A program made the position numbers and the translations under genes. A stretch of DNA of 63,004 nucleotides, the filler included, from Aduncisulcus paluster (lineage: Eukaryota): NCBI GenBank assembly GCA_024181965.1. It is 22 parts of 22 records of this genome, joined end to end, with 100 filler letters (N's around TTAATTAATTAA, not from the genome) between each part and the next. Parts side by side here need not be neighbours in the genome. Positions count along the whole stretch, not along the records: positions 29,415 to 31,078 come from BQXS01000314.1; 21 more parts are not named here. One strand, given 5' to 3'. Under the pieces are notes generated by a model that saw nothing but the letters and a program-made list of their open reading frames with translations, had not been told where the DNA came from and searched no databases. Below are positions 22,381-44,494 of this stretch, one piece after another; the first letter of the stretch is position 1; each line of letters begins with the position of its first letter.

Positions 22381-22925
22381 ATTGCAATATCCGTGATAGC
22401 TACCCGAATCTTTTCTGAAGAATCGAGTCCTTTCTCCAGCGCCTTTCTAACTTCCCTCTCGAGCTCGGTCCAGTTCGATGGGGTGTAGTAATTCCTCAGT
22501 CCAATAAAAATATCGTCAGTACAGCTGGTTGGCTTCATAACAAGCCACTCCATGGACGCTCTTGTGGACACGAAATCCTCTGAGAAACTCACGCCGGTGG
22601 TCGCTTTATATTTCTCGAATTTGTCAACAAACGTTCTATAGTCATCCCGACTACATGATTTTAACAAAGGTTTAGTAGGTGCAGTAACGATTTTTTCCGT
22701 CATTTTCTTTGTCCCTGGCTCAGTTTTGACAATGTCTTTTTCTCGACCCATTCCCAGATTTTTTTTTGCAAAGGCTGATATAATATCACCTGGAATATCC
22801 GAAGACAATAAGTCCCATAATAATCGAGTTCGATCTTCTGGTGTAAGTGTTTTCCCGGAAAATTTGTTTTCCTGTAAGGCCGCAGCTTTTTCCGTTAAGG
22901 ATAAAGTGATTTTTGGATAAGACAT
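22381..22925 (-). mobile_element. Probable gag N-terminus of an LTR retrotransposon, 3' truncated
   Basis: ATG ~100 nt downstream of an LTR-like segment and 14-bp palindrome; PLLKS..DYRTFVDKFEKY resembles Gypsy capsid starts. Confidence 0.6.
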
Positions 22926-23035
22926 TTTGTTTTGTGTTATGGTAAAATATTATTTTGCCTGATTGTTTTTTAGTATAATAATTTAAGAAAAAATTGGTCA
23001 ATTTCTTCTCGAATGATAGTTAAGAATTTAAATTC

Positions 23036-23123
23036 TGTAATAAGGCCAACTCAAACAATGTTGCTGTGAGCAAGTTTATTCGTTATGATCGATTGTTCAA
23101 GGGGGTCAAGTTCCCTGCATACA
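23036..23123 (-). repeat. Candidate short LTR (~88-101 bp; outer end at 23123 or 23136)
   Basis: Minus strand TGTATGCAGG...CCTTATTACA with internal AATAAA; lies between a broken RT fragment and a gag-like ORF. Confidence 0.55.
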
Positions 23124-23136
23124 ACTTCCCCTGACA

Positions 23137-23368
23137 GGACAGCATTTTTGATTTTGCCGTCCATGTTGAGGCGGTGAATAGCAGCAATAACAGCTTTGGG
23201 AAGTACAGTGTTGAAAGCATTGGCAAAGTCCAGGGCAACGGTATAAACCTTTTTACCTTGTCTTCTACCAACCTCAGCAGCTGCGTAGATACTGTTTAAA
23301 ACTGTTTCAGCACCTCCATCGCACATGACTCCAAGCTGGAGTTCATCTTTTCTATCATTAAACAACAT
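23137..23368 (-). mobile_element. Non-LTR RT fragment, CRE/SLACS-like
   Basis: QLGV..GGAE and VALDFANAFNTV motifs typical of CRE-clade RT; truncated at both ends. Confidence 0.7.
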
Positions 23369-26407: not shown

Positions 26408-27680
26408 TGCCTACCTAATGACTCCACTACCATCTTTGTGTCTTCCTCTGCCTCTATTCCAGTGGACAGGATAGTGATATCATCTGCAAATGCTCTTATT
26501 TTCAGTTTGGATTCATCATTCAATACAATATCCAGTGCCATGTTAAACAGGATTGGGGAGATTGCACTTCCTTGGGCTGTCCCTCTTCGGGTTGTGATCG
26601 TTTCCTCCCCGTAGTGAATGTGTGTGGAGATCGCGGCTCTAAAGATGTTCAATGAGGCAGGATGGATAATTCGGGATAGCATGACTTCCAGTATATTGTG
26701 ACTGATAGATCCATATGCATCAGAGATGTCAATGCATACGGCGTTATGTTCATGGCTTTCTGCCAGCCACTGTCTCATCTCAAAGATATTCAGCATACAA
26801 CCATCCACTTCCGGAATGAAACCTCTCTGATATCCTCCAACTAATCCGTGTGAGGTGGCATATGAAGTTAATCGTTTCGCAATTACCACAAAGAAAGTCC
26901 GCTGGACAGCTGAAGCAACACATATTGGTCTCCATCTGCTTTTCTCGTGGGTATCCCTGGGCGTTTCAGTATCGGCATCTTTGTCAATAATGGATAGCTT
27001 AGCCGCCTTCCATGATTCAGGCATATGTTGGAGTTCAATGATCTTATTAAAGAACAGTCTCCATATTTCAGGGGGCAATTCACAGACCGTTTTTCCATTC
27101 ACTTTGTCCGGCCCTGCCGCGGTACTTCTAATTCGTTTCAATGCCAATTTCACCTCAGCGTTTGAGAAGGGATGTATTACGAACTTCTCCACCAATGGAA
27201 GGTCCGGAAGGTGCAGTTCCGACGTGTCCACAATATTAGGGTGAGTCAAGTGTTCCATAATACTTATTGCCATTCCTGGTGGGGGGGATTCCCCAGTGTT
27301 ATCCTCGTACAGTGCTTTTCTCAGATCTCGAGCAGCTAGCCTCCTAAACCGGTATTTGTCTCTGGTCTCTAGACGGATTCTGTGGAAATCGGATAGAATT
27401 CTGTTAATCATGGGAATGTTTGCCGCCATTGTTGAGTAATAGAGTTGCATTTGGAGATTTGAGGGGAGATTTGTGGGGAGTTCATCCAAGCTTGTAATTC
27501 TTCTGGGTATTGTCTCTTCTGTGGTGGCTGTATCAGCTCTTCTATCCCTATTGATTGTGATCCTCGCCATATGACGTCGTTTGGCTTCTTCATTCAACCA
27601 TTTACCAACGAGTTCTATGTCTTCTTCATTGGTAATAGATGAGATGTAGTCTCTGAGGAGGCCATCTTTCAGTTCGGCTG
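26408..27680 (-). mobile_element. Non-LTR retrotransposon RT (R2/R4/NeSL-like), partial
   Basis: AAGPD, PESWK, WRPIC, QRGF...DGC, DISDAYGSISH, GTAQGSAISPILFN, AFADDI. Confidence 0.9.
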
Positions 27681-29414: not shown

Positions 29415-30555
29415 GATAGAGACCAAGCAAAGACAGAAGAAATACGCCAAGAAATAATACTGGCTGATGGATCAAAGAAGTTTTCAACAATGCAAACTGT
29501 TTTACTAGTATCCATTAACAATTCCTTCTTTGGGAAGAATCTCCAATTTTGGGAGGTGTTTGTCATATGGGAATCCGAACAAGACATTATAATCTTGGGA
29601 CTCCAAACGATTTTGGAAAAAGGATTATTGGATTTACTAAATCCACAAAAAAGAACGGAACCTTTTGTGAATGATAATGAAGACTCTGAATCAGAGGGCT
29701 TTAGGGGTACTGACCAGGTTATATCCCTTCGAGAGCCGATAAAGGATCTATCTGAACATTATACAAAGGTTATGGAAAGAGAAACACAAGCTATGGAGTT
29801 AGAACCTTATGAAATCGAATTAGAAAAAGGAAAGCGTTTTACTTCGGCTGAAAGAAGAAGAATTTCCCCAAAACATGTTGATTTTGTTGGAAATGAAGTT
29901 CATGAATTATGTGCAATTGGGAAGATTGAAAGGTGTAAGGTTCCAGCATTTTCTCCTTTGGTCATTGTTCCTAAGAAAGGAAGCAAATGGCGGATGTGCG
30001 TGGATTACAGGAAATTGAATGAGATCACAGTAGGTTTCAAGTTTCCTATCCCACAGATCGATAGTTTATTGGATCAACTGGAAGGATGTACAATATTTGG
30101 ACTCATCGATTTAAGCAAGGGATTTCACCAAATCCCAATCAGAACAGATCACCAAGATCTGACGGCTTTTGAGACACCGATGGGGATGTATAAGTGGAAA
30201 TATCTCCCATTTGGTTTAAAAAATGGACCAAGCCATTTTCAGATGGCAATGAACAAGGTTTTCGAGGGTCTCATTGGTAAAAGCTGCTTGGTATACATCG
30301 ATGACATTCTTATAATGGGAAGAACTGAATCTGAATTCTTATTGAACCTTTCGAGAGTTATGGAAAGGATAGAAGACTTTCATCTTGAAATTAATGTGGA
30401 AAAATGCGTGCTTGGAGTCAAATCTCTGGATTACTTAGGATATATTATAAGTGGAGAAGGGAAATGCATTAGTCCAACAAGAATTGAAGCAATAAGGGGG
30501 ATTAATGAACCCCGGACAAAGAAACAAACTCGATCCTTCTTGGGAATGGTAAACT
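29415..30555 (+). mobile_element. Ty3/Gypsy protease end and reverse transcriptase, interrupted by an LTR
   Basis: ILADG, IILG, WRMCVDYRKLN, DLSKGFHQ, LPFGLKNGP, YIDDIL, RSFLGMVN, then abrupt break. Confidence 0.95.
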
Positions 30556-30652
30556 TGTGGTGACCATTCTCAGGGACATTCTAAAAATAGATTGGTTCGC
30601 TCGAGATCTGTTTATTAATAAATTGGACCGCATTATAGTTAGTTTGGCCACA
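30556..30652 (+). repeat. Short (97 bp) 5' LTR
   Basis: TGTGG...CCACA termini and AATAAA; starts exactly where the RT frame is disrupted; followed by a palindrome and a gag-like ORF. Confidence 0.75.
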
Positions 30653-30717
30653 TTTTGATCAAAATCCTATCAAACTAAAGTTTATTGTATAATTGACGCC
30701 AAAATTTTTCTGTTAAA

Positions 30718-37953: not shown

Positions 37954-38190
37954 TGTGGTGACCCCACCTGAAACTTTTATCGCATATATATTTCTATAAC
38001 AATAATTCTTTCTATTATTATTTATTTGGATTATGTTTATTTATGATATTTATTTTATATTTTATTTGACATGATTCGACATGTAATTGATTCTCACGGA
38101 ATCAATCCGATCTTCTTCAAACTAATAAACTTGCTTCCTTCTATAGTTGGTTTCCGGTGTTTCTTGCTTTTATTAGTACTTAACACCACA
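37954..38190 (+). repeat. 5' LTR (237 bp)
   Basis: TGTGGTG...CACCACA 7-bp terminal inverted repeat and AATAAA; first 10 nt (TGTGGTGACC) identical to the LTR at 30556. Confidence 0.75.
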
Positions 38191-38294
38191 ATTTGATCAA
38201 ATTTAAAGGAAATTTTTTTTACTGTAAAGTAATTATTGGTGGTTTTTATTCCTCGTGCATTGGTAGCATTTGAGAAGAATCTTTGGTGATTTAA

Positions 38295-38567
38295 ATGGGT
38301 AAATCTGGAAAAACTAAGACGGCTAAAACTGGCGATGGTATAGCTGGTGAAATCCCTAAGGATAAGAAGAAAACTGGTAAAGGGAAACCTGATGGAACTG
38401 GTGATGCTGGTCATGAAGATTTATTGGTTGATGGAGACCACAGTGGCAGTGGCTCTACTTTTTCAGTTGGTTTGAGCAATAATTTATTGACTCGTGGAGA
38501 TTTGGGACCCACAGCGATTTTCTCTGAATCTGGTGTCAGAAAGAAAGTCTTACCGGTATTAAAGGAT
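38295..38567 (+). mobile_element. Probable gag N-terminus, 3' truncated
   Basis: ATG ~100 nt after the LTR and palindrome; basic N-terminus; identity inferred from position. Confidence 0.55.
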
Positions 38568-43853: not shown

Positions 43854-44494
43854 AGCTGATTCTCGATAATATCAATCGATTGCAAAAAAAATTCAATTTA
43901 GATAAGTTACCCGTGGATGAGACGTCTAGAATACAAACATTAGTGGATAATTGGGCCGAGATCTTCCCATTATCGGCAAAACGATTTTGGAGAAGAGAGA
44001 AATTTGGAGGGACGATAAGGAGGGATAAGTATCCCATGAAGTATGCTTCCACACTTCTGAAGAGGGCCAAAAAAGAACAAAAACAGCTGTTGGTCTGCTA
44101 TGGGGACTGTGGACGAGCACACCTGGGTAGAGATAAACCATTTAAAGCCACATATAATGGCTATAGATCTACGTCCAGTACCTCTTCCTTTCCGAACAAA
44201 TTAAAACAAACAGTTCAATCAAGAGGGGGTATATTCATTGAAGTTGATGAATACCATACGTCCAAGTTGTGTCCATGTTGCCACAATGAATTGTCAACGG
44301 TCGATGAAAAAAGGCGAATGAGAAAGTGTGGAAAGTGTGGTTTTGAAGGCAATAGGGACTATTCAGCTGCATATAATATTGCTATTCTTGGACTAAAAAA
44401 ACATTTTTGCCAGCCTTTTCCATCAGCTTTCATACGTCCGAGTTCTTTGGATGATCATCATCCTGTAGATGATCTACAAGCTTTTTCTCCTTAG
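43854..44494 (+). CDS. Fanzor1-type (TnpB-derived) RNA-guided nuclease, C-terminal half; 5' truncated by the contig edge
   Basis: LVCYGD (Gly at the canonical RuvC-II Glu position), VDEYHTSKLCPCC, CGKC, NRDYSAAYNI (RuvC-III), P.AF.RP tail. Confidence 0.88.

Follow-up and report, generated by a model that had tools for sequence, protein, structure and literature searches.

A palindrome at the primer-binding position of Ty3/Gypsy-type retrotransposons in Aduncisulcus paluster

How does an LTR retrotransposon begin reverse transcription when its 5' LTR runs into a perfect palindrome and not into a tRNA primer-binding site (PBS)? This question is raised by a locus in the window, a string of short contigs (63,004 nucleotides in all, filler included) from the 29.5-Mb assembly of Aduncisulcus paluster, a free-living organism related to Giardia. 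RT proteins that match at 85 to 96% identity carry the name Aduncisulcus paluster at NCBI. The genome was sampled by sequence searches, and all counts of elements and families given below are lower bounds.

LTR ends and palindromes in the window

Three families in the window carry a 14-nt palindrome at the end of a 5' LTR (Table 1). The boundaries of family 1 were examined in loci gathered with the LTR alone or the LTR plus internal sequence as the query. The LTR was found in 46 distinct contexts, i.e., 30 5' LTRs, 14 3' LTRs and 2 solo LTRs. The perfect palindrome was present in 29 of the 30 5' contexts, and the remaining one had a single change. All 14 3' LTRs were preceded by a polypurine tract and followed by 14 different right flanks, none of which was palindromic, and the two solo LTRs were bounded by 4-bp target-site duplications. 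Indeed, public contigs diverge from the window sequence at 30556 and at 30652, and the 5', 3' and solo contexts agree with these two positions. Thus, the initial annotation had placed the LTR and the palindrome, which share the last A of the LTR, exactly; it was also right that gag starts 52 nt after the palindrome, where the first ATG is found. An assembly artefact as the source of the boundary was rejected in view of the many independent flanks. We also considered the RT frame upstream of the LTR as the pol gene of family 1, but it belongs to a Gypsy element that was interrupted: its open frame stops in the first bases of the family-1 LTR, and one public contig continues the RT-fragment sequence uninterrupted beyond 30556.

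Table 1. Positions of the three families and of the insertion target of family 1 in the window
Feature	Position	Strand	Basis
Protease-RT fragment of a different Ty3/Gypsy element, insertion target of family 1	29415..30555	+	RVT_1, E 1e-38
Family-1 5' LTR, 97 bp, TGTGG...CCACA	30556..30652	+	Variable left flanks, 3' LTRs, solo LTRs with 4-bp duplications
Family-1 14-nt perfect palindrome ATTTTGATCAAAAT, PBS position	30652..30665	+	First base is the last A of the LTR
Family-1 gag, 5' part, ended by the contig edge	30718..31078	+	Gag likeness of the longer copy L005 to L199
Family-2 5' LTR, 237 bp	37954..38190	+	3' LTRs, solo LTRs with 4-bp duplications
Family-2 14-nt palindrome AATTTGATCAAATT	38190..38203	+	Two compensating changes relative to family 1
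Family-2 gag, 5' part	38295..38567	+	Full-length copy of a related subfamily, L199
Family-3 5' LTR, 101 bp, TGTCAG...TTACA	23036..23136	-	3' LTRs behind a chromodomain-like integrase end (by eye), solo LTR with a 4-bp duplication
Family-3 14-nt palindrome AGAATTTAAATTCT	23023..23036	-	Starts at the LTR end
Family-3 gag, 5' part	22381..22925	-	-

Two further sites had been named as cases of the same geometry, and both, those of families 2 and 3, turned out to be true 5' LTR ends with a palindrome. The palindrome of family 3 is identical in a subfamily that has just 81 to 83% identity to it.

Since the sequence is rich in A and T, palindromes might arise by base composition alone. However, among the 8,436 CA dinucleotides on the two strands of the window, only 3 start a palindrome of at least 12 nt at the A, and these three are the LTR ends; in random sequence of 84% AT, 0.4% of the sites start such a palindrome. 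Therefore, AT-richness was rejected as the cause, and in the AT-matched comparison that the initial annotation had called for, palindromes at LTR ends were far above chance.

In a further locus (L096:1490-1620, minus strand; G000 C10107), a family-3 3' LTR is followed at once by the palindrome of another family, AAAATAATTATTTT, and gag-like text; the palindrome AAAATAATTATTTT follows an LTR in L258 as well. The arrangement in L096 is either an insertion exactly at the LTR-palindrome junction or a swap of the LTR. Fragments of non-LTR (LINE-like) RTs, judged by eye from translation and position, lie at 26408-27680 and 23137-23347 of the window (both minus strand), and family 3 sits inserted in one such fragment.

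Class of the elements and breadth of the symmetry

L199, a member of a family-2 subfamily (2b), is complete, with identical 238-bp LTRs and a 4-bp duplication. Its pol has the order RVT_1, RT_RNaseH, Integrase_H2C2 and rve (Pfam), its RT has the Ty3 RT as the best match among solved structures (E 1e-44), and its Gag carries a CCHC zinc knuckle. Family 1 has the marks of an LTR retrotransposon, i.e., direct LTRs that start with TG, 4-bp duplications and a purine tract, and the Gag of its longer copy L005 matched that of L199 in BLASTP with an E value of 4e-7 (23% identity over 188 amino acids). The Gypsy order and RT class were thus demonstrated for family 2b, and family 1 is linked to it by the likeness of Gag alone. 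A chromodomain was matched by Pfam (Chromo, E 4e-8) in the palindrome-bearing L213 but not in L199; the motif in L199 and in family 3 was read by eye. From these domain and sequence matches, the palindrome-bearing elements are best explained as Ty3/Gypsy retrotransposons, probably of the chromovirus type, with family 1 included on account of its Gag.

To sample breadth, 20 regions with long frames were taken out of 80 RT matches; they were picked by RT and not by the palindrome. A palindrome started from the last LTR base in all 12 elements with a visible 5' end (12/12), and it was at least 12 nt long in 11 of them; the one of 10 nt extends to 20. The other eight regions were 5' truncated and showed neither an LTR nor a TGG site. 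The boundary was set by a second LTR in 4 of the 12 elements, including one whose LTR ends in TA, and the LTR end of the other 8 was inferred from a CA and the start of gag. Where both LTRs were present in one locus, a palindrome of 12 to 14 nt began on the last LTR base in five out of five elements, four of which were RT selected and one was reached via family 2. When RT-selected and pattern-found families were combined, 27 family rows contained 14 distinct palindromes of 10 to 16 nt, which run at least one pair into the LTR in 9 rows. As judged from these rows, the analysis has shown that what is conserved at the site is its symmetry and not its sequence.

The palindromes are distributed over deep branches of the RT tree, which kept 39 of 42 rows (L289, L303 and L310 were left out because they were too short) and was built without references from Tf1, Sushi and Skipper. 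In this tree, the 22 RTs of the genome cluster at 91/91, which is under the starred threshold, and monophyly is therefore not claimed. The palindromic site is lineage-wide in the Ty3/Gypsy elements of this genome.

As a control, Gypsy loci from metagenomes were examined. Out of 42 loci fetched, 9 had resolvable LTR pairs, and these 9, whose copies are redundant, carry a TGG site of the tRNA-Met type. The RT search of the metagenomes gave distant Gypsy elements only, with 23 to 40% identity, and it is silent on the spread of the site outside this genome. The RT search of viral contigs gave no match. The palindrome pattern did occur at 10 loci in viral contigs, but with no RT nearby, and these hits were taken as chance.

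Several other features of the elements were observed. L252, L255, L256 and L259 are complete elements with very short LTRs (78 to 96 bp), flanked by 4-bp and 5-bp duplications; only 3 bp match in L255. The elements in L009, L011, L065, L066, L071, L213 and L258 are frequently inserted into each other, with their own 5' leader or gag among the targets. In L022 and L026, an LTR with a purine tract before it and a palindrome after it marks tandem elements that share one LTR.

Candidate primers

None of the 27 family rows had TGG at the LTR end (0/27), as the initial annotation had stated for the case in the window. Against 41 unique tRNAs of the assembly, an incomplete set in which some look bacterial, the longest Watson-Crick run did not exceed 6 nt in any of the 27 rows, and there was no convincing host match. 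If a half-tRNA were the primer, as in Drosophila copia, the site should pair with an anticodon arm, and half-tRNA primers end at about tRNA nt 40. Indeed, family 1 and one other family (2 of 27 rows) pair over 11 nt, two of them as G-U, with the anticodon arm of the host tRNA-Gln(UUG), and the pairing ends at nt 40; but it begins 5 nt past the LTR and was equalled by 10 of 150 shuffles, and a half-tRNA explains neither the symmetry nor the palindromes that lack GATC. A half-tRNA primer is therefore highly improbable. Some small contigs (L103, L106, L108, L128 and others) contain tRNA genes with an encoded CCA and bacterial-looking neighbours; such genes suggest that bacterial contigs are present in the assembly. 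The 3' untranslated regions (UTRs) of L259 and L256 contain tRNA-like sequences in antisense orientation, with A- and B-box motifs, about 130 to 230 nt before the 3' LTR. With a relaxed threshold, ARAGORN called two such sequences in L259 and, upstream of the LTR, one in L191 but none in L256, where the likeness was seen by eye.

A primer from the transcript's own 5' end was tested for with the criterion of PMC6317226, by which some part of the 5' LTR has to pair with 10 nt or more that start 0 to 5 nt after the LTR. With the LTRs as the search space, the Watson-Crick complements were shorter than 10 nt in all but one of 28 rows; in the one exception, the complement is located some 120 nt upstream and thus probably not within the LTR. 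A match of the site to the element's own 5' end, which according to the initial annotation would have refuted its view, was therefore not seen within the LTRs.

Could one RNA prime itself? An RNA cut after the palindrome might fold back, or a local hairpin might act as was proposed for GalEa. Every palindrome is able to fold into a hairpin that pairs its final base with the last A of the LTR, and GalEa elements possess a local hairpin. However, the hairpins calculated here had only 0 to -1.8 kcal/mol, whereas the homodimers had -6.8 to -15.6 kcal/mol (the weakest being A-U-rich 12-mers with -6.8 kcal/mol). Moreover, the central 4 nt, which would be the hairpin loop, are symmetric in all 12 RT-selected elements and in every family, and a GalEa-like partner within 80 nt was found in only 1 of 27 rows (8 of 9 pairs). 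The large gap in stability between homodimers and hairpins, together with the symmetric centres, speaks for two strands and not for a fold-back, and self-priming by one RNA is very unlikely.

Where minus-strand synthesis starts determines the 3' end of an LTR. If priming occurred from the edge of the palindrome, this edge would define the LTR end, and a site locked to the LTR edge is thus the most likely primer site. As it is self-complementary, only a second copy of its own sequence pairs with it, and no single host RNA can match all 14 distinct palindromes. With a locked site, no single host RNA and two strands, the primer was most likely cut from element RNA. We therefore favour, with a probability of about 0.5, the reading that the primer would be an element-derived RNA made by intermolecular pairing and cleavage, in a one-way and not a mutual reaction. 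Two element RNAs would pair through the palindrome inside the particle, and a nuclease, most simply the RNase H of the element as in Tf1, would cut one of the two strands at or beside the 3' edge of the duplex. The freed 3'-OH would then prime minus-strand synthesis on the uncut RNA. The R-U5 of the donor would pair with the new DNA and be trimmed by RNase H, which would leave a primer of 12 to 16 nt. L199 has an RNase H domain (Pfam), whose activity on the duplex is a prediction; in Tf1, RNase H reportedly cleaves an RNA duplex in primer formation. We know of no rule by which just one strand would be cut. A fossil of the predicted intermediate (LTR, palindrome and inverted LTR) was found at none of 83 sites.

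The initial annotation had suggested a tRNA-independent mechanism in which two packaged RNAs anneal through the palindrome and prime each other. The independence from tRNA and the pairing of two strands fit the data, the latter because of the energies and the symmetric centres, but mutual priming does not: if the palindrome's 3' edge were the cut site in both RNAs, no template would keep the palindrome or R-U5, and the sequences for the second strand jump would be lost. By this inference, symmetric mutual priming was rejected, and the one-way version fits better.

A perfectly self-complementary site that forms stable homodimers could also be a signal for dimerisation or packaging, like the dimer-initiation sites of retroviruses or the PAL of Ty1, and priming would then be done by something else. 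Dimerisation of Ty1 RNA via palindromes has been proposed (PMC4974528). A dimer signal, however, gives no reason for the exact LTR-end register in every family, no other primer site is visible nearby, and dimer sites come in addition to a PBS (PMC5445492). Thus, we regard a pure dimer signal as unlikely.

A co-varying copy near the 3' LTR and relation to known systems

The initial annotation had overlooked that family 1 itself contains a second site. A near copy of the palindrome was found 140 to 162 nt before the 3' LTR in five related families (1, 2, 4, 5 and 26). In the 3' half of this copy, A-to-G changes pair with the 5' site as G-U, and its second and next-to-last bases track the 5' site, with T/A in families 1, 4 and 5, A/T in family 2 and G/C in family 26. 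The G/C state of family 26, whose 3' copy is one base shorter, was predicted from the 3' copy and later found at the 5' LTR of the family. When four 3' UTRs were shuffled 3,000 times each, such a partner appeared in 0 to 2 shuffles. The pairing of the 3' copy with the 5' site was calculated at -12.2 to -12.7 kcal/mol versus -12.6 kcal/mol for the homodimer.

If the palindrome acted as DNA, either as a dyad for a dimeric protein or as a device for the second jump, it would be unrelated to the RNA primer. Perfect dyads do suit dimeric binders, and both DNA strands are identical there; but a single binding protein is hard to reconcile with 14 different sequences, the A-to-G changes of the 3' copy pair only as RNA, and priming is left unexplained. 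A role as DNA is the least probable of the readings considered here.

Alternatively, the 3' copy might be the actual primer donor in family 1, so that an RNA cut just after the 3' copy would prime the 5' site. It co-varies with this site and pairs as stably as the homodimer, and its use would spare the 5' end of the donor. On the other hand, the 3' copy was not found in 4 of the 5 full-length elements or in the 381 to 506 nt before the family-3 3' LTR, and thus it is no general rule but an accessory of one sub-lineage. A pattern search for a 3' copy in the AAATTGATCAATTT families gave no match. Its wobbles lie 3 to 4 nt from the primer end, and end-to-end pairing as in CYC5:CYC3 of Ty1 accounts for it equally well. 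If the 3' copy were an inherited primer, its G changes should be seen at 5' sites, but none of 83 sites carried them. This test is weak, because the primer sequence is not passed on in Ty1 and Ty3 either (PMC5371799). Taken together, the 3' copy as the actual donor is clearly unlikely. Most likely, it would either bring the RNA ends together or serve as a dedicated primer donor. As a speculation, if plus-strand strong-stop DNA annealed to the 3' site in its DNA form, the G positions would leave it mismatched 3 to 4 nt short of its 3' end, and a premature jump could thereby be blocked. In L152 and other family-1 3' LTR loci, about 30 nt directly after the 3' copy could form an H-type pseudoknot of two overlapping 5- to 6-bp stems, which were seen by eye; by eye, they are not conserved in families 2, 4 and 5.

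The closest geometry is found in the fungal GalEa elements of the Copia type, in which the PBS is replaced by a 9-bp sequence that forms a palindrome together with the A closing the 5' LTR, and for which no model fits (PMC5445492; Donnart et al. 2017). Like the Conserved Hairpin Site of GalEa, the site studied here stands in place of a PBS, takes in the base that ends the 5' LTR (an A) and frequently has a TGATCA or TAATTA core. Unlike GalEa, which belongs to Ty1/Copia and has 10 nt with two dominant sequences, the present elements are Ty3/Gypsy by domain order and have 12 to 16 nt with many sequences. GalEa also has a second copy 12 to 41 nt downstream, which was seen here in 1 of 27 rows; five families have the G-U copy near the 3' LTR instead.

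Like Tf1 and Sushi, the elements are Gypsy types, probably with a chromodomain integrase, that would need no tRNA and would take the primer from their own RNA (PMC4600332, PMC6317226). The primer of Tf1, however, is the 5' end of the transcript and is complementary to a nonpalindromic site, whereas no LTR complement of at least 10 nt was seen here. Skipper of dictyostelids is a chromodomain Gypsy element of a protist and likewise has neither TGG nor an LTR complement (PMC5006619). Its authors suspect a new kind of self-priming with loss of the PBS, but Skipper has a polypyrimidine stretch, and the word palindrome is absent from PMC5006619. The 3' copy recalls CYC5:CYC3 of Ty1 and the bipartite 5'-3' PBS of Ty3, in which an interaction of the RNA ends is required to start reverse transcription (PMC4974528); Ty1 and Ty3 keep tRNA-iMet as the primer, whereas the 3' partner described here pairs with the primer site itself. 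Mini-elements of bivalves have similar inverted repeats (PMC6934838), and, for plant elements, a survey distinguishes three types of primer, i.e., whole tRNA, half tRNA and a self-primer from the 5' LTR (PMC6317226).

A literature search, with most subscription journals and Repbase outside it, found no Gypsy element with a palindromic primer site and no model of priming between genomes. There is less novelty than was assumed at first, as the geometry was already known from GalEa (PMC5445492). By analogy, the site would work like that of GalEa, and priming would probably be like a trans version of Tf1, though the elements belong to neither group. At slightly less than even odds, we tentatively suggest a further start mode for LTR reverse transcription, in which a fragment cut from a sister genome would prime a self-complementary site in trans. 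It would have separate origins in Gypsy (here) and in Copia (GalEa), and one sub-lineage would have added the G-U 3' copy, which pairs as RNA but mismatches as DNA and thus could not misdirect the second strand jump.

The GalEa palindrome has been without a model since 2017, and this genome is a richer natural experiment: it offers 14 palindromes on one element lineage, young copies whose LTRs are identical, and a 3' partner that changes together with the 5' site; two candidate primer donors can be told apart by the A/G wobble positions. Annotation tools that demand a tRNA site are expected to miss or misplace such elements. Elsewhere in the window, a frame at 43854-44494 ends in a CPCC...CGKC zinc-ribbon motif, which we take to recall TnpB/Fanzor-like proteins.
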